Source: a virus. From it: 64,000 nucleotides of DNA. A model generated the notes under the pieces. That model was not told where the DNA came from. It did no database searches and worked only from the letters and a program-made list of their open reading frames with translations. Within the stretch, counting starts at the first letter, position 1; every line of letters begins with the position of its first letter. Shown here in pieces: positions 1 through 52,160 of the stretch. Position numbers and translations under genes: made by a program. The stretch covers positions 1 through 64,000 of the IMG/VR virus record IMGVR_UViG_3300009103_000003; one strand, 5' to 3'.

Positions 1-120
1 AAACCTGCGTTGGTCCCACCATTATCTAGTAGAACTGGAGCTAAACCTGCGTTGATACCACCAACAACTAGTAGAACTGGTGTTAAGCCCTCATTGGTCC
101 CACCCAAAGGAACCACTACT
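1..120 (+). repeat. Imperfect 42-bp (14-codon) tandem repeat, two full copies plus one degenerate copy
   Basis: 1-42 aaacctgcgttggtcccaccattatctagtagaactggagct; 43-84 aaacctgcgttgataccaccaacaactagtagaactggtgtt; 85+ aagccctcattggtcccaccc. Encodes KPALVPPLSSRTGA / KPALIPPTTSRTGV / KPSLVPP. Confidence 0.85.
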
Positions 121-1338
121 AAGGTCCCTGGGGCTACAAGCCCACCCAAGGTTCCCGGAGCAACCGCTGGCGCACCTGGGATAAAACCCCCTAAGCCCGT
201 TGTTCCGCCTAAACCTATGGGCGGGGGGACACCAAAACCGCCTACACCAACACCACCAAAGGCTACCACCGCACCTAAGATTACCCCACCTAAGGCTGGC
301 ACGGGAACAACTCCCCCGAACGCGACACCACCAAAGGTTACCCCGTCAACAGCGGGCTCACCAAGCGCGGCGAAGCCAATGGCAGTACCCAAACCAGTGC
401 CTGTGGTTCCTGCTGCGGCACCAAAAGTAGCACCACCAAAGACTGATGCTGTGGGGGCTCCCACTGTGACACCTAAGACCCCCACGGTAGTTCCCGGTGG
501 AGGTGGTGTTACTTCTGCGACCGGATTCTCGGGTGGACGGCCCGCTGGCCCGCAAATAGCTCGAATGAAAACACTGGCAAAGGGGCTGAGCGACCAAGCG
601 AAAGGGCTTCGCGTAGATAAGGCACATTTAGGTGCGCACCAGAAAGGGCTTGATAGGGAAGGCGTACGGTCAGCAATGCGCAGTGCCAAAGAAGCGCCCG
701 TAAACCAATCGCCCGCATCCCCAGTGCATTTTTCTCGTTCCAACCTTTCCCCCACGACCCAGAAGGACAGGGATGATTTTGAGGCTCTCCAAAAGAGGGT
801 CAGTGTAGATCAGAAATCTGCGGGCAGTGGCCTCAGGGAGGCCATAGGCAAGGAACACGATAAACACGATAAGGCGCGGCAGCACAAACTTGATGCGAGC
901 TTAGGGAAACTTCCTGGCGCTACCCCGGTTGATGTTACTCCTGGCCAGCAGGATTTATTCAAAGCTATTGCTGGCTCTAGAAGGTCGTATGCTCCGGGCT
1001 CATATGCGGCGAAGAATATGGGCAAGCATAGCACAGGCTATAATCCCGAAGACCCGAACGCTTTCAGAGTTCTACAGGGTATGAACAATATATTCGGTGG
1101 CGAAAAAGGTGGTTTACATAACTACTTAGGAGAGCAAGGTGAGCGAGATCCAAGCAGATACGGAAAGCCGCGAGCCTGGGACGGCAAGAAACTAAGCCCA
1201 GAAGACGTTAGCGGGTTGGTTAAGCTGGTGAGTGAGGGCGACGGCGGGAACAAGACGACACAAGCAATTAAGAAGTTATACCAATCCGGTAATATTGATG
1301 CATTAAAAGGGATGCTCACATTACCCAAGGCTGAGTAG
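1..1338 (+). CDS. Pro/Thr/Lys-rich low-complexity protein, 5' truncated by the window edge; function unknown, possibly virion-associated
   Basis: Frame 1 is open from base 1 (AAA CCT GCG TTG GTC) to TAG at 1336-1338. The N-terminal ~170 aa are PK/PT/PP-rich; the C-terminal ~250 aa have ordinary composition. Confidence 0.8.
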   Translation, partial: KPALVPPLSSRTGAKPALIPPTTSRTGVKPSLVPPKGTTTKVPGATSPPKVPGATAGAPGIKPPKPVVPPKPMGGGTPKPPTPTPPKATTAPKITPPKAGTGTTPPNATPPKVTPSTAGSPSAAKPMAVPKPVPVVPAAAPKVAPPKTDAVGAPTVTPKTPTVVPGGGGVTSATGFSGGRPAGPQIARMKTLAKGLSDQAKGLRVDKAHLGAHQKGLDREGVRSAMRSAKEAPVNQSPASPVHFSRSNLSPTTQKDRDDFEALQKRVSVDQKSAGSGLREAIGKEHDKHDKARQHKLDASLGKLPGATPVDVTPGQQDLFKAIAGSRRSYAPGSYAAKNMGKHSTGYNPEDPNAFRVLQGMNNIFGGEKGGLHNYLGEQGERDPSRYGKPRAWDGKKLSPEDVSGLVKLVSEGDGGNKTTQAIKKLYQSGNIDALKGMLTLPKAE

Positions 1339-1348
1339 AGAGGGAGAT

Positions 1349-2020
1349 ATGGGAGACGTGGAGCAGTACAATTCGGGGCAGATGGCATCAGGCGGGTTTA
1401 CCGATGAAATGATGACGCATCTTGTCAAGCATTGGCAAGACTCTAAGGGTCTTACTGTCGATGGTTACTGTGGGCCTAAAACCCAACAGTCATTATCATT
1501 AAGTATGTTTGGTAATATTCCCGGCGCTAGTAATCTCGGACTTATGGCACTCGAAGTGGCCATAAAGGAGATTGGCAATGGGGAAATTGGTGGTAATAAC
1601 TCTGGTCCGCACATCGCTCGCTATAAAGGAATCCCTGACGACGGTGATCCTGATGATGATGGTGCTTGGTGTGCTAGCTTTATTAGCTATTGTTGCAGTA
1701 GTGCAGCAGATATTCTCGGCATTAAGCTGCCCTTCAAAACTAGTAACGGGGCGAAAGCGTTGTACAAGTACGTCTGCGAAGCGGGCACGAAGGTAGCTTT
1801 ACCGCAACCGGGTGATCTAATATGTTGGGACAGAGGCAAGCCGGGTTCTTGGCAAGGCCATATTGGGATTGTTGAGAGTTACGAATCTGGTGTGGTACAC
1901 ACCATAGAAGGGAATGTTGGAAGATTCCCCTCGCATGTTAAAAGATTATCGCATGATTTAGATAGGGAACCTCGCTTAATGGGGTTCGCTCGTATGTCAA
2001 ATATCAACTTAGGAGGTTAA
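1349..2020 (+). CDS. Endolysin: N-terminal peptidoglycan-binding domain plus CHAP amidase/peptidase
   Basis: VKHWQDSKGLTVDGYCGPKT matches the PG_binding_1 pattern (WQ..GL.VDG..GP.T). AWCASFISYC supplies the catalytic Cys and GHIGIVE...TIEGN the catalytic His of CHAP. SD GGGAG. Confidence 0.9.
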   Translation: MGDVEQYNSGQMASGGFTDEMMTHLVKHWQDSKGLTVDGYCGPKTQQSLSLSMFGNIPGASNLGLMALEVAIKEIGNGEIGGNNSGPHIARYKGIPDDGDPDDDGAWCASFISYCCSSAADILGIKLPFKTSNGAKALYKYVCEAGTKVALPQPGDLICWDRGKPGSWQGHIGIVESYESGVVHTIEGNVGRFPSHVKRLSHDLDREPRLMGFARMSNINLGG

Positions 2021-6585: not shown

Positions 6586-9500
6586 ATGGAAAAAGTTCAG
6601 GGCAGACAACTTGGGTTACGCCTATTTATGGAGGGTGTCGAATGTGACATCACAGCCGTAAAGGTGTCCTGCGGTGTAAACCAAGCTGCTTCAGCAGTGG
6701 TGACTATTCCAGCCGTGGACGCGGCCCACCAACTTGAACCCAGAACACTGGTCCACATATTCTATTTCGACTCAAGGTGGGAACTTGGCACTGACGTAGC
6801 CAAATCAGGCGGTCAGATATCGCACGGGCATCAGGCACGGCACAGTGACCCCGCTAAAGCGGCTGACGCGAAGAATTCCGGGGTTGCTGCATTACTCACT
6901 GATAAGAATGATTGGCGCAACTGGAAGCTTCTTTTTGCTGGTGAAGTGATGGGGTACAGCTTTCGCAAGATGGGCGGAAGACGCGAAATTATCTTAGCCT
7001 GCCAAGACTTCACTTCATACTGGGACAACTGTCGCCTTTATTGGGGCAGGAAGAAATCCAGTGTGTTTAACTCATACAAGACCGCTATTTTTTCGGGGGC
7101 GACACAACTATATCGCGGGAAGAGCAAGGTAGATAGTTCGAACGATCTGAATAAACTACTACAGAAGAAACCGTCTGCTGCCCCGAGTGTGCCTGGGCTT
7201 CTTGGTGGGATATTTTCTTTACTCGAATCCGCTACCGGAGTCTTTTCCCCGGACGCGAAGAAACAGTTTAGAGGCTGTAACGATTTTCTTAGTCAGGCTG
7301 AGATTCGATTAAAGCTGACTCGACAAATTGGTGCATCAGAGAAGGATGACACTTCTTTGGCGTTCACAAACAGTAAGTCATTCAAGAGGTACCTAAGGAA
7401 GCTTTCCAAGTCGGTTGGTTATACTGCATCGTTCATGCAGTTTACGAATATGTTGATGGGGAAAATCTACCATGTGTGGAACTCCCAAACAGCCCCTGCA
7501 TATATCTCTGATGGAGCCATGATATGGACCGAGGTAGTTGTCCCCGCTAATATTAAGTACAAACATAGCTCTGAGCCAGGGAAGCTCTGGAAGGCTATTA
7601 AAGCGACTTACGATTTAGCAAACAGCCATGCAGCGGACGGACTAGCCAGAAAAACCGGAGAGGGCGCAACAGCCCTTTCTAGGGATGAGCTTCTGTGGGA
7701 CGGGGATAAAGTCGCGGTAGGAAAACACAAAGAGTTTGACGACCTAAACACTAAAACAGGGATCATGTCCCCGAAAGCGGGCGGAACAGACAAGGTAATA
7801 CCTATAGAAAAGGACCCCTTACGACTTAAGGGCGAGGAAATACGTCAGACCTTGATTGAGAAAGCTGCGGGAAATAAATCAGTAATAAGGCAGGCCAACG
7901 CAATCTTTGATGCCTATTCCGCCGCAGCAGAGGCCAGAGGCCGTACCGCTGAAATGAAAGCCAAGCAGACAGGTAAAGGTCGTCCGGGCTACGATGAGAA
8001 GGAATCCAGGACTGCGGAGGGCCTCCAACACACACAGGACGATTACTTCTTTGTTCGCCGGAAGTGCGAGGAGGCATTAAAAGCTCTATCAAGAGCGACT
8101 CGCACACCCACCAAGACAATAAAAACCAAAGTAGAGCTTCGCGATAGGCTGTTTACCACCTATTTTCACCCAGACCTGTTCATGGCCCCGCCACCAAAGT
8201 GTAATGTAATTTTCCCAGACCATGTCCAAACCATCTCGTTTAGTCGTAATTGGATGAGTGAGATCTCTAGACTGTGGTTACACGGAAGAACTGCTAGTGG
8301 CCGCAATAAGAAGGATTGCTATTTCTCACCAAACGCTCAGATGCTAAATGGCCCAGGCTCAAAGGATTGCGAAGATGCCGTCAAGAAGGGCGCATCATTT
8401 GTTATGAACCATGAAAAATACACGGGTATTATTCCGAGTATTGTTGGTTTAGGTGATGGTGATATTTTCAAAAAAATTCACCAGAAAGAGCTAAAACAGG
8501 CCAAGAAAGAATTTAAAGAGGATGAGGCCAATAAGGGCAAGGTCTTTGACTCCGCGTCCGTGTCCGGTGAGGCTAAGTTTTCCCCACAACCACACCTCCA
8601 ACGCGCTGCGAACTACATGTTCTTTGCACAGAGGTACGCGACAAGGACCATGCAACTCACGTTGCGGTACTCCCCACAGATTGTCGCCGGTATGCCCGCG
8701 CTGGTCCTTGACCCAATCCGAACCAAGAGCCGTATTTTGGCTTATTCGGGTGAGGGCTCAACAAGGTACCCGGATAATAAGGATAAACGGATGTATGAGG
8801 GGCAGGTTGATCTTGCGGGAACACCGCCTGGGACCCACTATCTTGGGGTTGTTGCTGAGATTGTACATATTATTGATGTTTCTGGTGGTGCACAAACTGT
8901 AGTTACTCTGGCCAAATGTCGGGAGCATAATGAGGGTGCGGACATTTTCAAGAAGCCTAACGCTGATGGGACAGTGACTGTCCAAAGGACCCAAAGAACC
9001 ACTTCATGGAGAAAGGTCCCACCTCCCAAGGGGCAAGATACGGATATCGCAAACATCTCAAAAGAGGGCGGCTCCGGTGGGGGAACCGTAACAGCTACCA
9101 GCCCGGATGATGCAGAGGCTATTCTAGGTAAGCGATGGAGCAAAGGGACTCGGTACAGGATTAAACCCCGTAAAGATGGCGAGGGTGAGTACAAGAGGGC
9201 TATCCTCCCCCTTGATGGTGAACAGTTGGATTCCTCTGGGTACTGCGACCAGGATGGCTTTTATTATGACGGAGCGGGCAACCAGATTGGGTCAGCAGAA
9301 GGCGTACAAGTTGATGTTGAAAGACTTGTAGTAGGGAGAACCAAACCAAAGGATGTGACGTTTACGTGGGAAGCCACGGTGATGCCCCCTTGGTTTTCTT
9401 CGATATACACCCCCGCAAAGATCGGTCGCGAATTCTATCAGCCCATGTATGGCTGTAGCTCGATCCTTGATGATCCACCTTTTCGGGCAGTTAATAAGGA

Positions 9501-10128
9501 TGATCTGGAGACAAGCACTGTTGATCCAAATTCCGGTGTAAAAACTGACGATGAATCGGGCGTTGCTGTTGTTCATGTACCTTTTGCTGTTAACGGTGGG
9601 GAGGAATATAACGAAATTCGGATACCTGAGGATCTCCTTCAAGAATCAAAATCATCCACGTCTGCTGCCAACGCTCTGGCGGATATTTGGTTAGGCCTAA
9701 AAGAGATCGGCGCGTCCACGGACCTATATATTGATACTTACATAGACCGGCAGTATGCGAGTATGTTAGATATTTTGGGTAATACTAACCCGGCCATTTG
9801 CCTCAAAATGTACCCCGCGCCCCCAGAGTACTCAGACCACCAACAAGGCTTGGAAGAAGTTAGAGGGTTTCACGGAGATGCTTTTGGGCCCTGGGAGAAC
9901 CTGAAGAAGGGCTTTCCAGAAGCAGAGAAGGACCAAGAATTGGTTGCTGAGACACTACCCAAGATAACTGACGACTCTGGGATGGAGCCACGAAAGATTG
10001 ATGGGACAATAGACCCAAGAAAAGTAAGGTATGAAAAGGTATTACAGTATATAAACGCTTTGCGTAATCAAGGATTCAGAAATCAAGGAGGCGAATATGA
10101 GTCGCACACCGGAGCCCCAGAATCGTAG
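6586..10128 (+). CDS. Baseplate hub protein (gp27 / Mu gp44 / late-control D-like) with insertions
   Basis: N-terminal LRLFMEGVECDITAVKVSCGVNQAASAVVTIP...LLFAGEVMGYSFRK...IILACQD and later RTMQLTLRYSPQIVAGMPALVLD...YLGVVAEIVHIID..GGAQTVVTL match hub-type folds. Position in the tail module fits. Confidence 0.65.
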   Translation: MEKVQGRQLGLRLFMEGVECDITAVKVSCGVNQAASAVVTIPAVDAAHQLEPRTLVHIFYFDSRWELGTDVAKSGGQISHGHQARHSDPAKAADAKNSGVAALLTDKNDWRNWKLLFAGEVMGYSFRKMGGRREIILACQDFTSYWDNCRLYWGRKKSSVFNSYKTAIFSGATQLYRGKSKVDSSNDLNKLLQKKPSAAPSVPGLLGGIFSLLESATGVFSPDAKKQFRGCNDFLSQAEIRLKLTRQIGASEKDDTSLAFTNSKSFKRYLRKLSKSVGYTASFMQFTNMLMGKIYHVWNSQTAPAYISDGAMIWTEVVVPANIKYKHSSEPGKLWKAIKATYDLANSHAADGLARKTGEGATALSRDELLWDGDKVAVGKHKEFDDLNTKTGIMSPKAGGTDKVIPIEKDPLRLKGEEIRQTLIEKAAGNKSVIRQANAIFDAYSAAAEARGRTAEMKAKQTGKGRPGYDEKESRTAEGLQHTQDDYFFVRRKCEEALKALSRATRTPTKTIKTKVELRDRLFTTYFHPDLFMAPPPKCNVIFPDHVQTISFSRNWMSEISRLWLHGRTASGRNKKDCYFSPNAQMLNGPGSKDCEDAVKKGASFVMNHEKYTGIIPSIVGLGDGDIFKKIHQKELKQAKKEFKEDEANKGKVFDSASVSGEAKFSPQPHLQRAANYMFFAQRYATRTMQLTLRYSPQIVAGMPALVLDPIRTKSRILAYSGEGSTRYPDNKDKRMYEGQVDLAGTPPGTHYLGVVAEIVHIIDVSGGAQTVVTLAKCREHNEGADIFKKPNADGTVTVQRTQRTTSWRKVPPPKGQDTDIANISKEGGSGGGTVTATSPDDAEAILGKRWSKGTRYRIKPRKDGEGEYKRAILPLDGEQLDSSGYCDQDGFYYDGAGNQIGSAEGVQVDVERLVVGRTKPKDVTFTWEATVMPPWFSSIYTPAKIGREFYQPMYGCSSILDDPPFRAVNKDDLETSTVDPNSGVKTDDESGVAVVHVPFAVNGGEEYNEIRIPEDLLQESKSSTSAANALADIWLGLKEIGASTDLYIDTYIDRQYASMLDILGNTNPAICLKMYPAPPEYSDHQQGLEEVRGFHGDAFGPWENLKKGFPEAEKDQELVAETLPKITDDSGMEPRKIDGTIDPRKVRYEKVLQYINALRNQGFRNQGGEYESHTGAPES

Positions 10129-10393: not shown

Positions 10394-10729
10394 ATGAACG
10401 TTACGGAAATACGTGATTCAAAGGTGAAACTTGCGATAAGTCTGCAAGCCGCCCTTGAAGCGTCGAAAAAGGGCGCGGCGAGCCTTGGAGCACAAGCCTC
10501 AAAAGCAGGTGCTTTCGCCACTAAACATAAGAAACTTATTGGGGGTACCGCTGCTGGTATAGGTACCGCCGCATTATTAGCAAAATTGCTAAAAGCCAAG
10601 AAAGGCGCTAATGCCCTTTCAAAGTCAAAACTGACAGCTTTGCTCAAAAAGCATAAAAAGCCCCTCATGGTCGGGGGCGGTGCGGTAGCTGGCGCTGCCG
10701 GTTTAGGTGCACTTCTCTCAAACAAGTAA
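10394..10729 (+). CDS. Basic Ala/Lys/Gly-rich protein with K-L-A leader and two hydrophobic Gly/Ala segments; putative internal virion protein
   Basis: SD GGGAGG. VKLA at aa 11-14. LIGGTAAGIGTAALLAKLL and LMVGGGAVAGAAGLGALL segments. Confidence 0.75.
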   Translation: MNVTEIRDSKVKLAISLQAALEASKKGAASLGAQASKAGAFATKHKKLIGGTAAGIGTAALLAKLLKAKKGANALSKSKLTALLKKHKKPLMVGGGAVAGAAGLGALLSNK

Positions 10730-10762
10730 TTTTACTACATTAACCGTAAAGGGGTTAGAAAC

Positions 10763-11368
10763 ATGTTAGATCCGAATCGCAGAAGAAATTTAGAAATCGT
10801 CATCCACGAGGAACTCGAAAAGCAGGCTATGCTTTCAGGCCTCGTTGCTGCTGGTAAAGGCATTGGTATGGGTGCCAGTGCTGCTGGTAAAGGCATTGCT
10901 GCCGGTGCCAGAGGGGCAAAAGCTCTCGGCGCTGGAGCCGCTCGTCTTGGTAGCAAGGCACTCAAAGCCGAAGGAGCAGCCTGGAGTTCTCTTGGAAAGA
11001 ACGTAGCCAACCAAGCAAGCAAGGCAGGCCAATGGGGCAGCAAGAATATTATTGCTCCCGCTAAGTCGGCTTTACAGACTGGGTACAAGACCATGAAGGG
11101 CCATGCTACTGCTGCTGGCAAGGCGCTTAGCGGTGCCGCAACAAGCACAGGAAACGCTCTGACTGCTGCACGTAAGGCAACTTTGGCTAGAGGCGCACAG
11201 GGGCTGGCCGCTACCAAGGCTGGTGGTAAAGCTACTGGCTCAGCACTGCTTCGTGGTGGTAAGGCAACTGGTGCAGCATTGACCTCACCTACCGCTAAGA
11301 AGATTGGTGCCGAGGCCGCTCGTCTTGGCGCTGGTGGTGCTGCTGGTTACGGCGCGTCAAAGTTATAA
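10763..11368 (+). CDS. Basic Ala/Gly/Lys-rich protein with EELEKQA leader; putative internal virion protein
   Basis: Charged leader ending in EKQA (aa 19-22), then AAGKG-type repeats including a 33-bp DNA repeat at 10847-10912. Confidence 0.75.
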   Translation: MLDPNRRRNLEIVIHEELEKQAMLSGLVAAGKGIGMGASAAGKGIAAGARGAKALGAGAARLGSKALKAEGAAWSSLGKNVANQASKAGQWGSKNIIAPAKSALQTGYKTMKGHATAAGKALSGAATSTGNALTAARKATLARGAQGLAATKAGGKATGSALLRGGKATGAALTSPTAKKIGAEAARLGAGGAAGYGASKL

Positions 11369-11384: not shown

Positions 11385-12275
11385 ATGTTGGCTGTGGCAG
11401 ACCCAGTATCGGAATTTCTTAAGTACGCAGGGGATACTCAAGTACGAGCACACTCCAGGCGAACCAATGGGAAAGTTGTATCTGTAAGACAGCACACCCG
11501 AGAAGACGATGACGATGTTGGCAACAGCACAGACAAAGAACTTTCCACGTTCAACGCTTTAGACGACTTAGACGCTAAGAAAAGTCGAGAGCTAGAATTG
11601 TGGAAAAGGTGGAAAGCCAATGGGGAGGGGCCGGAAGATCTTCGGCCTCTCCTCAAAAGCTTCCGACCCATGATCCGGTCAAAGGTAAATGTATATAAGG
11701 GTAAGGTGAAGATGATTCCCGACTCCGCTATAGAGTCCGAATTCCAGCTTCGTTTTGTGGATGCCTTGCGATCCTACGACCCCGAGAAGGGGTCTTTGGG
11801 GACCTATATATTTCGCTATTTAGATAAAGCAAAACGCTTTATCGTTGAGAACCAAAACATTGGTCGAATCCCTGAAAACAGGGTGTATAAAATCAAACAG
11901 TTCTCGGTTGCACGGGACGAGTTGGCTGAAGATCTTGGCCGAACTCCCGTCACCAAGGAAATCTCCGAACGCTTAGGTTGGTCATTGGCCGAGACCGGGC
12001 GGATGGAGGCAGAGCTACGGAACGACCTTCTGTCACAAGGATTTGAGGACGATCCCTATGCGTTAGCCCCCTCTAAGTCAGAGGAGGTCTTGCGCCTATT
12101 TAAGTACGAATTAACCGGTAATGAACGCGAAGTTTACGAGTACCTGACTGGACACGGTAAGCCGCAAACATCTTCCACAGGTGATATTGCTCGTGCCATG
12201 AAGATCCCCGATTACCAAGTCAGCCGACTGAAGAACACTATTAAAAAGAAACTTCAGCGTTACCTTACGGAGTAG
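11385..12275 (+). CDS. RNA polymerase sigma-70-family factor (group 3, FliA/SigB-like) with N-terminal extension
   Basis: Region 2 (LLKSFRPMIRS...FVDALRSYDPEKGSLGTYIFRYL), region 3 (IGRIPE...ELAEDLGRTPVTKEISERLGWS) and region 4 HTH (LTGNEREVYEYL...STGDIARAMKIPDYQVSRLKNTIKKKL). Start moved from 11304 to the ATG at 11385, after the upstream stop and with SD AGGA. Confidence 0.9.
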   Translation: MLAVADPVSEFLKYAGDTQVRAHSRRTNGKVVSVRQHTREDDDDVGNSTDKELSTFNALDDLDAKKSRELELWKRWKANGEGPEDLRPLLKSFRPMIRSKVNVYKGKVKMIPDSAIESEFQLRFVDALRSYDPEKGSLGTYIFRYLDKAKRFIVENQNIGRIPENRVYKIKQFSVARDELAEDLGRTPVTKEISERLGWSLAETGRMEAELRNDLLSQGFEDDPYALAPSKSEEVLRLFKYELTGNEREVYEYLTGHGKPQTSSTGDIARAMKIPDYQVSRLKNTIKKKLQRYLTE

Positions 12276-12278
12276 ACA

Positions 12279-13451
12279 ATGGACGACGAAAAAAGATTAC
12301 TCACATCAATTAAGAGTATGGACAGGGCCGCTGAATTAACGAAGCACGCAAAGCTTAGTGTTAGCGATGTTGAGGATGACCTCGGCATCTACCTGTCAGA
12401 CAAAGATGAGACCAAGGTTCGTCGTCTAATCAAAGAGCGCACAGGCAAGTCTTTCGCTATGCGCCACCCATTGCTTACGGGTATCCCTACTTTAGGTATT
12501 GCTCCTGCGGTTGCGAAAGCTAACGCAAAGGAGAAGATCATCCGGCGACTGGCCAGGGATGACGTTAAACTTCGTGGTGAAATGGCGGCTGCTAAAGACA
12601 AGCGCAGAGCAGAAGCCCTAGAAGAATATAAGGCAACTACTGAACGCGACAAGGCGAACCAAGCCTCTCGCGCAGCAGGAGCACTCGGTAGATCGGGTGT
12701 TGAGATTGCTGCATTATTAGCTGCTAGTAAGCGAGCAAACATGCAGAAGGAATCCGCTGCTAAGGCGACGTTTTCTCCCGCGATGGATAAGAGCCCCGCT
12801 TTAAAGGGTAAGCAGTCCAAGCTCCCAGATAAGATTCAAGCAGGCATTCTTAAGAAGAAGATGAAGAAAAAAGAGGCGGCTGTTGTACGCAGCGGCCTTA
12901 TTCAAGCATCGGAAGCTCTCTACACAGATCTCTACGCTAAGCGTGGACTCGAAAAACGCGCTAATCCTTTTGCTGCAATGTTTCCCTCGCTTACTCGTGG
13001 CGCAGGAAAATGGGCTGCTGGCGGTGCCGCCCTTGGCGGCTTAGGCGCGGGCGCTCGCCGCCTTTCTCAGTTACGGGAATTAGCCGCCTCCGGTGGCCGA
13101 GGGAAGTGGGCCAAGGACTGGCACAAGGCTATGGCCGAGAAGAGTGTAGCCGCAAAAGCCGGTGAAACATACACAATGCCTGGAAGGCTTGCACAAGAAT
13201 CACAATTCTTGAAAGCCCAAAAAGGACTCAAAGGAAAAGCTTTTGCTGATGCCCCGATGGAGTACTTGAAGGCTTACGGGCCGGAAGTAGCCAAGGCTAT
13301 GCTGGAAGGCGGTGGCGCAGCAGCGCTTGCTGGCGGTGCATCTCGTATGGCTGCAAATTGGGCGAGACGTAAGAAGATGATGGATACTGCTAAAGCAGTC
13401 GCTGTTCCGGCTGCTCTGGGCCTTGGTGGATATGCGCTACTCAAAGATTAA
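12279..13451 (+). CDS. Basic modular protein with several K-x-A junctions; putative internal virion polyprotein
   Basis: TKHA (aa 21-24), KKEA and LEKRA separate compositionally distinct segments. Gly/Ala hydrophobic stretches in the C-terminal third. Confidence 0.75.
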   Translation: MDDEKRLLTSIKSMDRAAELTKHAKLSVSDVEDDLGIYLSDKDETKVRRLIKERTGKSFAMRHPLLTGIPTLGIAPAVAKANAKEKIIRRLARDDVKLRGEMAAAKDKRRAEALEEYKATTERDKANQASRAAGALGRSGVEIAALLAASKRANMQKESAAKATFSPAMDKSPALKGKQSKLPDKIQAGILKKKMKKKEAAVVRSGLIQASEALYTDLYAKRGLEKRANPFAAMFPSLTRGAGKWAAGGAALGGLGAGARRLSQLRELAASGGRGKWAKDWHKAMAEKSVAAKAGETYTMPGRLAQESQFLKAQKGLKGKAFADAPMEYLKAYGPEVAKAMLEGGGAAALAGGASRMAANWARRKKMMDTAKAVAVPAALGLGGYALLKD

Positions 13452-25380: not shown

Positions 25381-28300
25381 ATGGCTAATAATGAAGAACT
25401 AAAAAGATATCTCACGGAGCGGCTTACGGACCTAGATCCAAGCTTGAGCGATTCGGCTGGCTCCTTGATGTACGTAAAGGTTATTAACCCTCTGTTGGTC
25501 AGACTGGGGACGGACCCGCTTTCGGTAGATATAGAGACCTTTATCCTAAGCAGATTGCAGGACGAGTTCCCCGCATTAGATGTGAAGTCTCCTGGGTCGG
25601 TCCTCCGGGATGTTTTAGTCAGCCCCTTAGTGTTGATACTTGAGCCCCTCCAAAGAGAGATTGAATTTCTAAGAACCCAGAATTCCCTTGCTGATAGCGA
25701 GTCGCTCACCGAGTCGGAGATGGACGCGTTACTGTCCAACGTCCTATCGGAACGGAAATTCGGGGAGTATGCCCGTGGCTATGTCCGCGTATATTTCAAT
25801 GCTGCCAGAGCAGTAGGGGTAGATGCCTCCATTGTATTCAGCACTGCTGGTGGCAACGGCTTCGTGGCAGAAGAAGCATTTACTTACGCTGTCACAGACA
25901 TGGTTCGATCTGGGAACCAGTTTTACCTAGATATCCCGGTAAGGTCGCAACAACCCACTACTGATGGGAATATTGGGTCGGGAGCCATAAAGTACGTTTC
26001 CGGACTAGAGGGTGTTGTCAGAGTAACCAATCTGACCGCGTTCACGGGCGGCGTCACAAAAGAAACAAATGAAGACTTCTTAATTCGCGCAGAGAGGAGT
26101 TTGTCGGAGCGGTCCCTAAACACGAAGAGGGGTATTGAAACTGCCATCCTAAACAGTTTCACTGATGTGGTCTCCGTCCAGATAGTTGGATATGGCGAGC
26201 CCGACATGAACCGGGACATTATCCAAGCCCGCGTTAAGGAAGAATTTGACGAAGATATTGGGCCACTAATTTACATGACGGCCAACTGGAGAACTCACGG
26301 GTTAAGACCCGGCGCTGGCGTAGTCCTCCCATTTACGAACACACTAGCCATAGTCGCACCGGACGAGAGCGCCATAGACGGTGGCTGGCCAGAGGAGCTT
26401 CTGCTTAGCTTGCTTCAGGCCAAGTACATCAGAGTATCGGATGGTAGCGGGCTTACATGGTCACATACTGGTGACGAACCCCCATATGGTGACTCCGATG
26501 GTGGCCCTGCTGGAGTGGACCCCTATAAAAAGAACACCTATGAGGACGGCCTTCTACATAGGGTTCGAGCGGTTGACGAGACGTTCTATAACGCTGCTGG
26601 GGACCATGAAGTATATATTCGTTTGAAGGACTTTGAGGTCTACCCGGAACCCGTAGACATTATGTCTCCTGTAGGCATCCCGGCGACTATTACATCGAGT
26701 GAGCCAGACGTTGGGCTAAATAAACGTTCCTATCAAGGATCAGCCTTCAAGATGATTGGTGAGATAGACAGTGGTGGGGTTCTCCACGACATTGTCCTAG
26801 GGGCACATCTCCCGTTTGCGGATTACGTTTACACGACCTTTGTTGGTACACAGATTCCACCAGCCATCGTTCCTGGGCGAGACTTCCTATACACATGGAC
26901 AGAGGACAAGAGTTGGTCAATAAACTTCAACGGGGATGACCTCGGACTTACCTACCCAAAGAAGGCGCGGCTGTGGCCATTAAAGACCTATTATTCTAAC
27001 TCTGAACTAGGTGTTGGTCGCATTGATAGCTTCATGGTTAGCAAAGGAAGGGCGGTCTACCCCGGTAAGGACCAGTATGTCTTTGACCCCTCTTTAGTAT
27101 TTTCACTAATGAGGGAGAATATTAAAATTGTCGATTACGGTTCCCCTAAATTCACTACTACAGATGATATAGTTGAGCGATTTGGCGGGCAAGAGACAGA
27201 GGAAGTCGGTAGGGGCCCTGGGGTGATGATTCAGGTGATGGAGGATTTAACCTCTCATACACCAGAAACTGAAACTTGGGCGAATCTCCAAGCGGCCCAT
27301 CCGTTACAAGTAGACTTGATTCTCCATGCTTCGCAACCCAAGTGGGCTGACCGAGGCGTGTCTGAGGGTCACTATGTCTGTTGCTCAATATACCGACATG
27401 ACACAGCGGGTATTTTTGACGGGAAGCTGGCGAACGTAGAGACCGATATCCAGTGGCAAGGCTGGGGAAGGGTTATCAAAGTTGGTGCTGGTACTCCGTG
27501 GCGTTTGCGCGTTGAGGGCTTGGACTTTGGTCCATTACACGAAAATAATTTCTGTAACTTCTCACCCGCGAATAGTGGGATTGTTACGATAAACGCAGTC
27601 CCCCAAGAGTTCTACAACGGCCTCGGCCAGGGTGCGTTGTTTGACACCACAATGATTCGCATGGAGTATGACGCCGCTTTCGCTGTTCTTGATCCCCGCC
27701 AGCCGTGGCAGGCAGATCCCTTCGCCCCTGCCGAACCGGGGTCCGGTAATCACGCAACGAAAGAACTGTTGGTCACCGATCCACTTCTTCTGCCACCCAC
27801 TCCTTGGGGACCCAATAAGCCGGGGATGAAACTGGAGATCATAAATCCTATCGCTGATGCGAACCCATTTTTTGTAGACGACAGTCTCGCGACGTACCCA
27901 TCTCTTCCACAAATGTTTGCCGGTATAATTGCGAAGCTCGCCACACATACATCCCTACAAGACTTCGCCAACAACCCCATTCTTTCCGCCACAGTAAACG
28001 GTGCTGGTAATGGTCTTATCTTCAAATGCGAGGTGCACGGCGAGTACGGTAACTCCATACAGATAGTGGAATGGACTCAGGATGGCAGTCCGTGTGGACA
28101 ATCGGGCAACCTTGCAGATGGTGTAGCACCATCGATTACACAATTAGCTAATTACTTGGCAGGCCGGTACTCGGTTGCTTTTGCTGCGGCTGATGCCGAG
28201 GTTCTTACTAATGCCGGGGAGGAACCGGCCAAGATTCGGATTTTCCAGAACGATAACTCGTTAGCCCCCGTGTATTACAATATCGAGTCTTCCACCATCC

Positions 28301-31300
28301 CTTCGGATTTTGATTTATCAAACTGGAACGGGGATCAGTTTCTGGCTGGTGGGTTCCACTATGGATTTGGGCCCCTAATCCAAGTTGGGTACGACGCCCA
28401 TCTCTTCCCCATCATATTCGGTGTTCCGGGCACCGCCCCCAACCTAATTGCCGGGGACCCAGTCACGTACGAGCACGAGGAGTTAACACCAGCACCCGCA
28501 ATTGATGGTGTCACCCTCACATATTCCCTATCTACCGAGAATACTCCGCTTCATAGAGGGACCCTACGCCTACATTATTGGGACCCAGAAGATCGAGACG
28601 GTGTTCCCGCTGATGGGCAGCACTACGTGTGGAATGACGACGGAGAAGGCCGTCTAACACAAATTCACCCTGCATGGCTAGACGGTGTCGGTAACCCAAC
28701 TGCGGTGATTACTGATGCGGTCAATCTAGCTTTAGAGATTGAAGAAACCTCCCCAGGGAGCGGTGTGTACCATGAAAAGGGGCGCATTGATTACTCTCAG
28801 GGCCGGATTAGCCTTGAGTTCAATCAGGCGCACGTCCCCCTTGTAGAAAACCTCGTCGCCGTTGGCGGACACGAGTTCCCCCTGTTTTCTGTTGGGTATG
28901 ACTACTACTACAACCCGTTTAAGGCCGCATGGACAGTCTACCGGGGCGCTGTGGAAACGATTGCCCCAACAGGCGATCTTGGTGTTTCCTACGACGAGTT
29001 CTCATTTGTTCCTGCATACAAGCGCCCAGGGCCCAGAGGCACCCTCTCATCTTTAGTGGGGCCAGATCAGGATGGGTCAGTTATCGCTCGCGGGTCTTCC
29101 GTCTTCCACTCTGACCGGTGGGACGGCGACCCAGGCAATGACCTTGGGTCAACCTATCGGTACAGCGAGACAACTGAGCGCCAAAATAAGAGACGGGGTC
29201 TGTGGATAAGGCTTGGCAAAGGCTTTGACCAGAAGCACCCCAGCATCGGCGGTGCTCCTTCCGCAAAATGCGTTTCTGGGGAGGTGGTTGACTTCGATTC
29301 ATCCGGCCCAGAAGCACAGGTTGCCTCGACATGGCCTAGTGGCGTTTATACCGTTGCAGACCAGAGGAAGTACCCAAAGACTCGGTATGCCATCCAGACA
29401 GGTCACGATATTGACCATGATGCTGTCGATGAAGACTTCTTTGTTACTAAATTGTCGCTACCCACCGTCCCAGGGTCGCGCAACCTAGACCACCCAGAAG
29501 ACCCAACAGAGATGTCATTTAGTGGCGAGGAGATGACCTACATAAACTCTAAAGGGTTGTCTGGGTTTCTTCTTCCCCATCCAATGGGACCATCCCACTA
29601 TGGGACAACCGACTTCCCATATGGTGGCGCTCCACCAAACTCCGTTGTCGATAACCACCTATTAGACCATCAGGTTCTTCAGGTTTACGATGCGGCCACA
29701 GACTCACTTGAGGATGCTGGTATTGTCGTATCCGGGATACCTGGAGGCGTACCCTTCCCAGGCTGGTTTGGCGGTGAGTTCGAAATTAAGGATGATGAGA
29801 TCCACATTGGTGGGATGACGGATGTCTATTCCAAGTCCACCGCAGTAGAGGAGCGGACAACCGCGCCAATTAAACTGCAACCAGAAGCGCTAGATCCTGA
29901 CGCATTACCCGCCCCTTCGCCAACAGACCCGCCTCCAGAATACGAGGTCTTGGTGTCAGCAGCGGATGGTATTATTAATGCTACGATGGCGGGAGATGCC
30001 ACGCACTTTGATAGTGCAGAACTGCTTGCTGCTATCGCGCTGCACTTCGGAGCTACAGGTATTGCACTAGATAATCTCGTTATCGAGATTCTCGATCCAC
30101 CCACCCCGGATCTACAACCGATCTTTTTCAGGGCGATTCACACGACCTCTGCCGGTGTAAAGGTCGATGGAGAGTTCCCAGATGGGGCGTCGTACGCGAA
30201 TGTACGCTTCCGAGCTTTGTTCGGTTGCACAACAAGCGTCGATAAACCCTTGATTGTTCTTCAGCAGGGTAACGACCTTGTTGTGGAGAAGAATGATTTG
30301 TCCGTGTTCTGCCCAAGCGGATTCTCGTTTGGGACAGACCCTGGTGATGTTGCTATCTATATCTCCATCGACTCCACAACATCCCGTGGGGAATACCGGG
30401 TCTTATCCAAGAACCTTAATACCCTTATTATTGAGACAGCTATTCCTGAAACAGGGACAGCTTTATCTTATCGGGTGTACACCAAGCAGGCTGCGGGAGT
30501 TGCGTTACCGCTTGTACGCGTGAAGTCCGTTTCCCTGTCTGGCTCGGAGACAGAGGGCGTTGTAGTCCCTTACAAGAATCCGGTGGATATTGTCGCAAGC
30601 TCTTTCGCTGGCCTGAATGACGACCCGATTAATGAGGAATCTATCGGTGAAGACCCCACAGCATTTGAGTGGGAACCAACCGTGATGATACAGCCGTTTG
30701 GGCCCGGTGGAGAAAACAGGGCCTGTTTAGTTGTTCACGACAACGAGGATTTTGTTACCGAGCATAATATTATTAAATATGATGTGGTTCGGATTGAGAC
30801 ATTGGAGGAGCCAAACAAGCACTTTTATGTCGAAGATATAAGAGATGTTGATACCGGTAATACTACCGGAAAACGCAACTGTCTGGTATTGGACCGTAAT
30901 CTGGTTGGCTCTACATCTGATGTGGTGAATGTCCGATTCTCCCTCGGTAGACCCGCTGTTGGCACTGCGGAGCTTGTGTTTAGAGACCCCACATTCTTTG
31001 AGGCCGGTCCAGACACAGAGTTTAGCTACACTCTGGACCTTGGCACTGTTGCCGGTCAGACCTTTGGGAACCAACGCACATACAAATTTAGGCCGTCGCC
31101 CCTGGAGTCGGCGGTTCTGTTTTTATCTGACTACGCATTTTCAGACATAACAATTGACGGTAACGACCCAGGGTTCCTTGTTAGTGAGGATATTAATTTC
31201 TTCAAGCACGGACTTAAGGTAGGGGACCGGATAACAATACTTACCAGGGTAATTCGTTCAGGACTGTTTAACGGGCAAGACCCCTTCTTAGAAGACGAGA

Positions 31301-32475
31301 ACTTAGCTCTTGCCGGGAAGACTCTGGTTGTTTCGGTCAATGGTCAAAGACGAACAGTTGTATTTAGTGGGCCTAACCCAACAACGCTTGAGCAGGCTGT
31401 TGCAGATATAAACAGACAGCTTGGTGACGTTCTAAAGGCAGAGATTTGGGAAGACCCGGCCAATGCCGAGCACTATTACCTCCAAATATCCTCCAACACC
31501 CCAATTCAGCTTCTTACAGAAGGCACTATTGGGATCTTGGATGAGTTACGCTGCGTGGGGCTAGACCAACAGGACAACAATCACTACGACCCCGTCCTTC
31601 TTAATACCGAGTTGTTTGACCCCTACTACATCGATGACATTATCTACGTTGATAAAAATACAGCCCTTGATGGTAAAGCTAAGTGGAAGCTCAAGGTTCT
31701 ATCGGTTGACGGAAACAATGACACACCAGTCACGGCTGGGACGATGGAGACTGTGTTTATTGAGGCTCGGAGGTATAAGTACCAGCGTGTAATGCCTGCC
31801 GACATGACACAAACGGCTGTCGGCCTGTACTCGGCCCCGATCACACTTACTTCCTACGATCCTAACGTAACGGACGGGTTAATTTCGGAGCAAACACAGT
31901 TGTCGGTGGCGGGACACAAGTCTCTTGGCTACGAGATGGTTGTTAAAAATGCTAACTACTCTTACTCGCTAGGAGAGGAGTGCAGCATTAGGACGACCAG
32001 TGTAATCCTAAGCGATACCCAAAAAGATTTCTCCAAGCCTTACGCTCTGCCCGGAGCAGATGTGACTGTTACCTACGATAGGTCCCAGTCCGTAGCCGAT
32101 ATCCAATCGTATCTGCTGAATAAGGCCATGAGAGTTGTGTGCAACAACCCACTCTCTAAGCACTTCTTTCCTGCGTATCCGATGACCGGTCTTAGCTATG
32201 GGGACAGCCGCCTGTCTCCAACTGAGGTGCGGACTTATTTAGAGGAATTTTTCAAGACTCTGTACCCCAATAAACCTTTGGAGCTATACGATATATCCGC
32301 CCTCTTAGCTAAAAGAGGCGTCGGGTACGTACAGTTTCCTCAGTACGTAGCCTTCCTAGTTCACGATGAAAACCGGGTGGTTCGGATCGTCAGAAGCGAG
32401 GATGTTATTTATCTGAATAAACGGTTCCATATTATGGAAGACACAACAGGCGTTGTGATTAACAAGGTGAGATAA
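25381..32475 (+). CDS. Giant baseplate J-like (T4 gp6 / P2 gpJ family) wedge protein with large insertions
   Basis: N-terminal ARGYVRVYF...VVRVTNLTAFTGGVTKETNEDFLIRAERSL is the Baseplate_J signature (GG.d.Et.e.l..R). Canonical gp25-gpJ-gpI-fibre gene order. Confidence 0.8.
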   Translation: MANNEELKRYLTERLTDLDPSLSDSAGSLMYVKVINPLLVRLGTDPLSVDIETFILSRLQDEFPALDVKSPGSVLRDVLVSPLVLILEPLQREIEFLRTQNSLADSESLTESEMDALLSNVLSERKFGEYARGYVRVYFNAARAVGVDASIVFSTAGGNGFVAEEAFTYAVTDMVRSGNQFYLDIPVRSQQPTTDGNIGSGAIKYVSGLEGVVRVTNLTAFTGGVTKETNEDFLIRAERSLSERSLNTKRGIETAILNSFTDVVSVQIVGYGEPDMNRDIIQARVKEEFDEDIGPLIYMTANWRTHGLRPGAGVVLPFTNTLAIVAPDESAIDGGWPEELLLSLLQAKYIRVSDGSGLTWSHTGDEPPYGDSDGGPAGVDPYKKNTYEDGLLHRVRAVDETFYNAAGDHEVYIRLKDFEVYPEPVDIMSPVGIPATITSSEPDVGLNKRSYQGSAFKMIGEIDSGGVLHDIVLGAHLPFADYVYTTFVGTQIPPAIVPGRDFLYTWTEDKSWSINFNGDDLGLTYPKKARLWPLKTYYSNSELGVGRIDSFMVSKGRAVYPGKDQYVFDPSLVFSLMRENIKIVDYGSPKFTTTDDIVERFGGQETEEVGRGPGVMIQVMEDLTSHTPETETWANLQAAHPLQVDLILHASQPKWADRGVSEGHYVCCSIYRHDTAGIFDGKLANVETDIQWQGWGRVIKVGAGTPWRLRVEGLDFGPLHENNFCNFSPANSGIVTINAVPQEFYNGLGQGALFDTTMIRMEYDAAFAVLDPRQPWQADPFAPAEPGSGNHATKELLVTDPLLLPPTPWGPNKPGMKLEIINPIADANPFFVDDSLATYPSLPQMFAGIIAKLATHTSLQDFANNPILSATVNGAGNGLIFKCEVHGEYGNSIQIVEWTQDGSPCGQSGNLADGVAPSITQLANYLAGRYSVAFAAADAEVLTNAGEEPAKIRIFQNDNSLAPVYYNIESSTIPSDFDLSNWNGDQFLAGGFHYGFGPLIQVGYDAHLFPIIFGVPGTAPNLIAGDPVTYEHEELTPAPAIDGVTLTYSLSTENTPLHRGTLRLHYWDPEDRDGVPADGQHYVWNDDGEGRLTQIHPAWLDGVGNPTAVITDAVNLALEIEETSPGSGVYHEKGRIDYSQGRISLEFNQAHVPLVENLVAVGGHEFPLFSVGYDYYYNPFKAAWTVYRGAVETIAPTGDLGVSYDEFSFVPAYKRPGPRGTLSSLVGPDQDGSVIARGSSVFHSDRWDGDPGNDLGSTYRYSETTERQNKRRGLWIRLGKGFDQKHPSIGGAPSAKCVSGEVVDFDSSGPEAQVASTWPSGVYTVADQRKYPKTRYAIQTGHDIDHDAVDEDFFVTKLSLPTVPGSRNLDHPEDPTEMSFSGEEMTYINSKGLSGFLLPHPMGPSHYGTTDFPYGGAPPNSVVDNHLLDHQVLQVYDAATDSLEDAGIVVSGIPGGVPFPGWFGGEFEIKDDEIHIGGMTDVYSKSTAVEERTTAPIKLQPEALDPDALPAPSPTDPPPEYEVLVSAADGIINATMAGDATHFDSAELLAAIALHFGATGIALDNLVIEILDPPTPDLQPIFFRAIHTTSAGVKVDGEFPDGASYANVRFRALFGCTTSVDKPLIVLQQGNDLVVEKNDLSVFCPSGFSFGTDPGDVAIYISIDSTTSRGEYRVLSKNLNTLIIETAIPETGTALSYRVYTKQAAGVALPLVRVKSVSLSGSETEGVVVPYKNPVDIVASSFAGLNDDPINEESIGEDPTAFEWEPTVMIQPFGPGGENRACLVVHDNEDFVTEHNIIKYDVVRIETLEEPNKHFYVEDIRDVDTGNTTGKRNCLVLDRNLVGSTSDVVNVRFSLGRPAVGTAELVFRDPTFFEAGPDTEFSYTLDLGTVAGQTFGNQRTYKFRPSPLESAVLFLSDYAFSDITIDGNDPGFLVSEDINFFKHGLKVGDRITILTRVIRSGLFNGQDPFLEDENLALAGKTLVVSVNGQRRTVVFSGPNPTTLEQAVADINRQLGDVLKAEIWEDPANAEHYYLQISSNTPIQLLTEGTIGILDELRCVGLDQQDNNHYDPVLLNTELFDPYYIDDIIYVDKNTALDGKAKWKLKVLSVDGNNDTPVTAGTMETVFIEARRYKYQRVMPADMTQTAVGLYSAPITLTSYDPNVTDGLISEQTQLSVAGHKSLGYEMVVKNANYSYSLGEECSIRTTSVILSDTQKDFSKPYALPGADVTVTYDRSQSVADIQSYLLNKAMRVVCNNPLSKHFFPAYPMTGLSYGDSRLSPTEVRTYLEEFFKTLYPNKPLELYDISALLAKRGVGYVQFPQYVAFLVHDENRVVRIVRSEDVIYLNKRFHIMEDTTGVVINKVR

Positions 32476-52036: not shown

Positions 52037-52160
52037 AACAGTTTCCTCCTTAAGGAAAAGTCTCAGTAGTGGCGGGGAATCCGTCACATCAGTTAGTTCG
52101 GAGAGGGAGATAATCCCTTCCTTCACTATTCTTATCCCCAAAAGAAGGGTCATTTTTGCA

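Follow-up and report, generated by a model that had tools for sequence, protein, structure and literature searches.

Which RNA polymerase is served by a sigma factor whose gene lies among the structural genes of a phage, and could such a protein travel inside the particle? The question is raised by a sigma-70-family gene at 11385-12275 (+) of a 64,000-nucleotide stretch of viral DNA, hereafter the window, which represents the opening 64 kb of the 181,199-bp contig of an uncultured marine phage; the contig carries terminal repeats and was rated complete (IMG/VR record IMGVR_UViG_3300009103_000003, positions 1 to 64,000). A first-pass annotation made from the letters alone had proposed that this sigma is packaged, matured at a K-x-A leader, and injected to redirect the RNA polymerase of the host. 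The present analysis pointed to another partner. The overall reading, in which the sigma is dedicated to the phage's own single-chain polymerase, is probably co-packaged with it, and is linked to it in one marine subclade by a hairpin found on both proteins, is one to which we would give even chances.

The product of the gene is a sigma-70-family protein with domains 2, 3, and 4. Translation of 11385-12272 (+) reproduced the protein text of the first-pass annotation letter for letter, including MLAVADPVSEFLKYA, GDTQVRAHSRRTNGKVVSVRQHTRE, and DDDD. PHROG 351 ("RNA polymerase sigma factor") was matched over amino acids (aa) 122-295 at E 4e-12. In the Pfam search, the matches to Sigma70_r3 (E 3e-4) and r2 (E 0.05) fell short of the curated cut-offs, and r4 was not detected. 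A family profile of 26 homologues compared with PDB entries aligned over regions 2.2-3.1 with RpoS, SigA, and RpoD (E 7e-8); this comparison showed region 2.2-2.4 to be divergent, and the WW dyad of region 2.3-2.4 was not retained. The AlphaFold model, with a predicted local distance difference test score (pLDDT) of 78, demonstrated all-helical domains 2, 3, and 4 with helices at 164-220 and 231-295, and Foldseek returned sigma factors only (probability 1.0, 230-330 columns, full-length sigmas). Domain 2 (regions 2.1-2.4) could be assigned by the profile and Foldseek, and domains 3 and 4 by the sub-threshold Pfam r3 match, PHROG 351, and the model, so that the complete region 2-3-4 sigma factor claimed by the first-pass annotation was borne out. 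A search of a 5.8-billion-protein collection yielded 182 homologues, almost every one of them full length. The contigs that encode them derive from marine metagenomes and measure 170-190 kb. With megablast, the window had no match among cultured phages. The first-pass annotation had also allowed for a true start downstream of the K-Y-A motif. The start at 11385 stands, since the N-terminus is conserved among homologues and relative L011 carries a stop codon three codons upstream of the ATG.

Outside the window, the same genome encodes an RNA polymerase in which beta and beta' are fused into one chain (Table 1). Pfam analysis revealed beta (Rpb2_6, E 2e-56) followed by beta' (Rpb1_1, 2, 3, and 5) in a single frame. 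The gene lies directly 3' of the portal gene (71880-73892), as it likewise does in Salmonella phage Arash, and no alpha or omega homologue was found in the genome. The clamp-helix region of beta' and the NADFDGD motif align well with bacterial beta', and, of the four Arg residues in the clamp-helix motif of bacteria (LYRRVINRNNRLKR), the phage polymerase keeps only one (LYRDIALLNKKLKE). The altered clamp helix and the divergent sigma region 2.2-2.4 have, together, the suggestive look of a private sigma-core interface.

Among the IMG/VR contigs encoding a relative of the sigma, 14 of 15 also carried the fused polymerase, as single open frames of 2060-2391 aa. The lone contig without it is a 61%-complete fragment, and all four complete genomes (4/4) contained both genes. 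Redirection of the host enzyme would be expected from the sigma of a phage that lacks its own polymerase, which is not the situation in this phage or in those 14 relatives. Because the two genes are co-encoded in 14 of the 15 related contigs, the phage's beta-beta' polymerase, and not the host core, is the likely partner of the sigma. The host RNA polymerase, named as the target by the first-pass annotation, is an unlikely one in view of the phage's own fused enzyme, this co-occurrence, and the hairpin module common to both proteins that is described below. Core binding and promoter-specific initiation by the sigma would find indirect support in the co-occurrence and in a conserved promoter-like motif.

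The sigma core is preceded by an N-terminal extension, for which conservation was assessed in the alignment of the 26 homologues. The first 40 residues were conserved as strongly as the core itself: K13, A15, V20, and R25 were invariant, and P7, F11, H23, V34, and R39 were conserved at a level of at least 90%. The consensus of the extension is NPVxDFLKYAxxTxVRAHxRRxxGKxVxVxxHxR, and the core opens at KKxRELELWxxWK. AlphaFold predicted a helix at 7-15, four short strands within 18-39 (pLDDT 66-70), and disorder at 39-57 (pLDDT below 50), and the acidic linker that follows the hairpin accepts insertions of up to ~60 aa among homologues. The twin V-R-x-H-x-R motif reported earlier is real and conserved, and the acidic patch reported with it corresponds to this disordered linker of variable length. 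The most widely kept part of the extension is the "NPvxDFL" core of the helix. Distant relatives (L020-L024, 40-44% identity) retain this helix and the acidic stretch and have no hairpin, and in them the K and A of K-x-A are replaced (FLEAL, FLEFA, FLTLV, FLGLQ). Arash Gp10 and Vibrio phage D69_0011 start directly at the sigma core, without helix, hairpin, or acidic extension.

The K-x-A element itself, described earlier as a shared junction, proved to be a weak three-residue pattern. It was present within the first 40 aa of 58 of the 207 open reading frames (ORFs) genome-wide (28%), and composition alone predicts 0.08-0.62 occurrences per cassette protein, or 20-60% for the Ala/Lys-rich neighbours. 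Given this near-chance frequency and its loss in L020-L024, K-x-A was rejected as a processing junction, and the comparison of sequences does not support cleavage or maturation of the leader at that site. Neither BLAST nor a regular-expression search found the sigma leader in other proteins of the phage, and a search with a hidden Markov model (HMM) led only to a hairpin of the polymerase. A leader shared among head cargo, as in the capsid-targeting sequence (CTS) of T4 or its phiKZ counterpart, is thus not seen here, the only match being internal to the polymerase. Of the two features that the first-pass annotation suggested checking in homologues, gene location is maintained throughout, and the leader is maintained in the near clade, with K-x-A and the hairpin lost in L020-L024 and the whole extension absent from Arash and D69.

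The polymerase hairpin could be detected by searching the sigma-leader HMM against the 207-protein set, which returned polymerase aa 855-881 (VRVKAHTR...KTVEVKEHERE) with 14.2 bits (E 3e-4), compared to 9.6 bits for the best match in 50 shuffled proteomes. The proteome contains five copies of the motif V[KR]xHxR, where 0.37 would be expected. Two close pairs account for four of these units, one pair in the sigma and one in the polymerase, and none of the 500 shuffled proteomes contained any pair. The twin hairpin of the polymerase represents an insert of ~31 residues (aa 852-881) at the position of E. coli beta 1122-1180, known as beta-i11. This region is a surface insert of E. coli beta (PMC2939025), and the phage hairpin occupies the same permissive surface loop between b14 and b15; the E. 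coli insert, however, is a 59-residue helical domain, whereas that of the phage is a twin His/Arg hairpin resembling the sigma N-terminus. Polymerases that carry the insert are those of this phage, G001, G002, G003, G004, G005, G007, G009, and G015; those of G010, G011, G013, G014, Arash, and D69 lack it. Its distribution equals that of the sigma hairpin wherever the N-terminus of the sigma was covered (the G015 locus covers only the C-terminal part of its sigma). A different insertion was observed in relative G014, whose polymerase is ~300 aa longer (2391 aa; G014:C1:121200-128600): the additional segment follows immediately after the conserved GRHGNKGIIT motif, begins with Cys, and looks like an intein.

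Indications of packaging were obtained from Arash. Its Gp10 is the orthologue of the sigma, with 30% identity over aa 68-295 and the same gene position. Mass spectrometry of Arash virions from a sucrose gradient detected Gp10 at 100% coverage with 24 unique peptides (PMC10585845). When unique peptides were normalised per 100 aa for 39 Arash proteins, Gp10 ranked highest (10.3), above the capsid protein (9.8), and was followed by the polymerase protein Gp206 (8.4), the SNF2 helicase Gp217 (8.1), and the polymerase protein Gp216 (6.6). Spectra per residue in the same table were 2.0 to 2.4 for Gp10, Gp206, Gp216, and Gp217, and the most-detected protein of the virions was the polymerase. Replication enzymes yielded 2-3 peptides each, and Gp196, a true second sigma of Arash (PHROG 351, E 3e-24), was not among the listed virion proteins. 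These values fit a stoichiometric set of sigma, polymerase, and helicase in Arash particles. The SNF2-family helicase of the present phage, orthologous to Gp217, is encoded at genome 87394-89163 (+) (L004:3394-5160) and may belong to the same packaged set.

The position of the genes also fits virion proteins. In the relatives, tblastn synteny placed the sigma gene always just downstream of the gene for a conserved 1180-aa protein and upstream of the baseplate genes, and the same arrangement by position was seen in Arash and D69. No sigma70-type promoter or terminator above chance was detected around the sigma gene, so the gene appears to lie inside a long structural transcription unit. As predicted for virion transcription machinery, both genes stand among structural, putatively late genes, the sigma in the tail/baseplate operon and the polymerase directly after the portal. 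By analogy with Arash, it is an even question whether the sigma of this phage is packaged in the particle. The packaging and injection proposed by the first-pass annotation are therefore favored in part, by Gp10 in the Arash virions and the conserved place in the structural operon, with support that is indirect and drawn from a preparation that was not clean. Its remark that no example of such a strategy had been described was nearly right, as the Arash paper lists a sigma among the virion proteins and draws no conclusion from it.

A candidate promoter, GGTATAAG-N5-TG, was found at 11 sites in the genome compared to 0.23 expected (~50-fold enrichment). Most sites are minus-strand and precede non-structural genes, for instance at 120446, 132379, 137532, 159859, and 173765. 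The relatives contained 12 (G001), 8 (G002), 9 (G004), and 3 (G014) sites and Arash 19, while reversed-pattern controls gave 0-1. In Arash, 18 of the 19 sites are on the non-structural strand, and the lone forward site immediately precedes gp9-gp10. No -35 element accompanies the motif, which has a final G in place of the T required by sigma70, and its TG fits a -1/+1 transcription start. Its conservation across phages of different hosts points to recognition by a phage-encoded factor. Several copies are very near start codons, and their transcripts could be leaderless or nearly so. An exact k-mer hit, TATTACCG, was rejected as a promoter as it is spread through coding regions; the 42-bp repeat of the contig ends also surfaced in that search. 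Inspection of the plus-strand intergenic regions by eye gave no evident late-promoter motif for the structural block.

Taken together, the sigma is probably dedicated to initiation by the RNA polymerase that the phage itself encodes, and, because no alpha or omega homologue occurs in the genome, the minimal enzyme would comprise the beta-beta' chain plus the sigma. Its domains 2-4 would contact the clamp helices that beta' has retained and would recognise a promoter specific to the phage, for which GGTATAAG-N5-TG is the best candidate. The sigma would be made during particle building, as its gene belongs to the late structural operon, and, on the homology with Arash, would be loaded with the polymerase and the SNF2 helicase in roughly equal amounts. 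This packaged set would be delivered to the next host along with the DNA and may start early transcription without the host polymerase. The extension of the marine subclade would represent a tether-like module and not a cleaved K-x-A leader; its hairpin matches the one on the polymerase surface and would most likely keep the sigma on the core, or bind both proteins to a common partner such as DNA. In its most specific form, the proposal is of a ~180-kb phage family that packages a self-contained holoenzyme (single-chain beta-beta' and a sigma70-family factor, with the SNF2 helicase), injects it, and fires GGTATAAG promoters, the twin His/Arg hairpins of the marine subclade locking sigma to polymerase, directly or via a metal ion or DNA, so that the two remain tethered through packaging and ejection. 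That full version is tentative and probably does not hold in every part.

Several points weigh against a co-packaged, hairpin-linked sigma of the phage polymerase. Binding of the sigma to the phage core rather than the host core is a prediction. The reciprocal search, from the polymerase-hairpin HMM to the sigma, was weak (6.8 bits), about as high as the best shuffled matches. One evolutionary gain, and not many independent events, probably underlies the concordance of the hairpins, which so counts as one strong coincidence and not many. Arash and D69 lack both leader and hairpin, yet Arash virions contain both proteins; the hairpin is therefore not a general packaging signal, and its role is better guessed as tethering sigma to core, or binding a common ligand, than as a universal packaging tag. 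No exact copy of GGTATAAG-N5-TG occurs in the 64-kb window, where the nearest variant is at 52124-52138 (-), and the structural block is thus without this promoter. Nor is the motif tied to this particular sigma, as Gp196 could read it in Arash. The packaging figures all come from the Arash homologues. The Arash particles were purified by sucrose gradient only, and 116 of ~252 proteins were listed, including primase, ligase, uracil-DNA glycosylase (UDG), and ribonucleotide reductase (RNR) (PMC10585845). Abundant soluble complexes may have co-sedimented in that preparation.

Such an inflated virion list leaves room for an ordinary intracellular phage sigma, working with the phage polymerase or the host core, for example in a feed-forward loop of late genes, with the Arash signal explained by carry-over. 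The gene lies in a late-looking operon without a promoter of its own, and the well-studied phage sigmas (T4 gp55, SPO1 gp28/gp34) are all known to act inside the infected cell. Carry-over accounts poorly for a Gp10 peptide density that tops the normalised proteins, exceeding even the major capsid protein, when replication enzymes reach only 2-3 peptides each and the second sigma, Gp196, is absent. A starter of late transcription would also not be expected inside the late operon, and a polymerase encoded beside the portal and most-detected in Arash virions fits a virion enzyme. We regard an exclusively intracellular role as possible but rather unlikely. The model of the first-pass annotation, in which the head protease trims a packaged sigma at K-x-A and the injected protein redirects the host core, agrees with the bacterial type of sigma domains 2-4, the homologue in Arash virions, and the invariance of K13 and A15 in the near clade. 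It appears very improbable, because the phage polymerase accompanies the sigma in 14/15 contigs and has the hairpin module in common with it, phages of Salmonella and of marine bacteria conserve the candidate promoter, as fits phage-encoded recognition, and K-x-A, found in 28% of ORFs, is not kept in distant relatives, with no leader shared at the sequence level in the proteome.

The extension could also be an autoinhibitory module like region 1.1, masking the DNA-binding surfaces of the free sigma or filling the polymerase channel until promoter opening, and the look-alike in the polymerase would then be coincidental or of unrelated role. In sigma70, region 1.1 is located N-terminal to region 1.2, and the acidic disordered segment of the phage protein has the same location; the weak reciprocal hairpin search agrees with this idea as well. 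Coincidence, however, is difficult to reconcile with the absence of any twin-motif pair from the 500 shuffles and with a polymerase insert whose distribution matches the sigma hairpin exactly, and the relatives without a hairpin keep the N-terminal helix and the acidic stretch. We consider autoinhibition improbable, although less so than redirection of the host core.

The closest known systems are Arash (Gp10; Gp206/Gp216; SNF2 Gp217) and Vibrio phages D69, D148, and D181. Arash resembles the present phage in its orthologous sigma at the same place of the structural block, its orthologous polymerase directly after the portal, the GGTATAAG-N5-TG sites on the non-structural strand, and its genome of ~181 kb. 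The sigmas of Arash and D69 differ in having no N-terminal extension, and their polymerase is split into two genes and is without the hairpin insert; Arash further possesses Gp196, for which tblastn found no counterpart in this genome. The polymerases of phiKZ and AR9, with gp68 and gp226 as specificity subunits, are likewise beta/beta'-type phage enzymes without alpha or omega. One polymerase form of these phages is packaged and injected for early genes, and an SNF2-type helicase is associated (PMC7598289, PMC7824862, PMC13282480). Their beta and beta' are divided into 4-5 segments, and by sequence neither gp68 nor gp226 belongs to the sigma70 family, whereas here one fused chain occurs with a bona fide sigma70-family protein and packaging is a prediction.

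Phage-encoded sigma-family proteins that change promoter specificity are also represented by T4 gp55, SPO1 gp28/gp34, and the sigmas of T4-like jumbo phages. To our knowledge, these are made after infection and have not been reported as virion components. The phages that encode them have no polymerase of their own (PMC7824862). The N4 virion RNA polymerase (vRNAP) and crAss-like gp66 show a polymerase gene among structural genes and an enzyme that is packaged and injected for early promoters, which for the present phage is predicted. They are single-subunit or highly derived giant proteins that work independently of sigma, and the N4 enzyme reads hairpin promoters. The bacterial-like polymerase genes of the cultured phages YerA41, RHph_TM30, Carin-5, RP13, and Vibrio 1.031.O were not accompanied by a sigma of this family, one weak r2 match being the only signal.

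According to reviews, a phage that encodes a multisubunit polymerase lacks a sigma homologue, and one that encodes a sigma lacks a polymerase (PMC7824862, PMC13282480). Unlike both of these strategies, the present family appears to combine the two. It may represent a minimal two-protein holoenzyme of bacterial type, lacking alpha and omega, that may be carried in the particle. Were this confirmed, it would stand as the simplest sigma-dependent multisubunit polymerase in nature, useful for the study of sigma-core co-evolution and a candidate orthogonal transcription system, and could account for a host-independent start of infection by abundant marine phages. For the question of how a sigma stays with its core, the paired hairpins provide a concrete, testable handle.

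Table 1. Position and basis of the features discussed (window coordinates unless marked as genome)
Feature	Position	Strand	Basis
Sigma-70-family gene, 296 aa plus stop	11385..12275	+	PHROG, Pfam, profile-vs-PDB, AlphaFold/Foldseek
N-terminal short helix, aa 5-15 (ADPVSEFLKYA)	11397..11429	+	Predicted helix 7-15; conservation
Twin V[KR]xHxR basic hairpin, aa 18-40 (VRAHSR ... VRQHTR)	11436..11504	+	Predicted strands; conservation
Acidic, disordered, length-variable linker, aa 40-63	11502..11573	+	Low pLDDT; homologue insertions
Sigma core: 1.2-like helix, domain 2 (~aa 83-160), domain 3 (164-220), flexible 3.2 linker, domain 4 (231-295)	11574..12272	+	Profile, model, Foldseek
Fused beta-beta' RNA polymerase, one 2091-aa chain, outside the window	genome 74330-80605 (L003:10330-16602)	+	Pfam
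Conserved structural protein, 1180 aa, preceding the sigma gene in marine/IMG-VR relatives	6586..10128	+	tblastn synteny
Two small Ala/Gly/Lys-rich ORFs (111 and 201 aa) 5' of the sigma gene	10394..11368	+	No PHROG match
Ala/Lys-rich ORF, 390 aa, directly 3' of the sigma gene; conserved in L011, L012, L014	12279..13451	+	ORF list, synteny
Baseplate protein, 2364 aa, Baseplate_J domain, matching Arash Gp13	25381..32475	+	Domain and homology search

The surroundings of the sigma gene are tightly spaced: the stop of the upstream ORF (10763-11368) is followed after 16 nt by the sigma start, and the sigma stop after 3 nt by the next ORF (12279-13451). At the position of the 1180-aa protein, Arash encodes a 1165-aa virion "cell wall hydrolase", Gp8, a link by position only with no sequence match. 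The block can be described as tail/baseplate because of the Baseplate_J protein at 25381. The earlier description of the neighbours as putative internal-protein genes was not confirmed as stated; they encode unannotated Ala/Gly/Lys-rich proteins on the tail/baseplate side of the structural block. These flanking ORFs (10394-11368 and 12279-13451, +) are of low complexity, with glycine-zipper-like hydrophobic tails and no family match. The giant ORFs of the window were rejected as polymerase candidates, being baseplate, fibre, and PKD-domain proteins.

A six-frame search of the genome with Pfam r4 and r2 for a second sigma found only the gene at 11385. The ORF at genome 120602-121423 (-) was tried as a second sigma and rejected, as its match to Gp196 was weak and limited to phmmer/BLASTP, hhalign to the sigma family gave a probability of 0.2, PHROG and Pfam returned no hits, and its AlphaFold model (pLDDT 78) was mixed alpha/beta. 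It encodes a conserved 272-aa protein (L005:16602-17420) with short local similarity to the Arash sigma. Within the structural block, the 223-aa product of 1349-2020 (+) combines a CHAP domain (E 6e-11) with peptidoglycan-binding domains and is likely a cell-wall hydrolase. Tandem repeats of 42 bp (AAACCTGCGTTGGTCCCACC...) were observed at both contig ends (window 1-110; genome 181039-181199); the ORF that holds them crosses the circular junction into window 1-1338, and part of this stretch represents the terminal repeat of the assembly.

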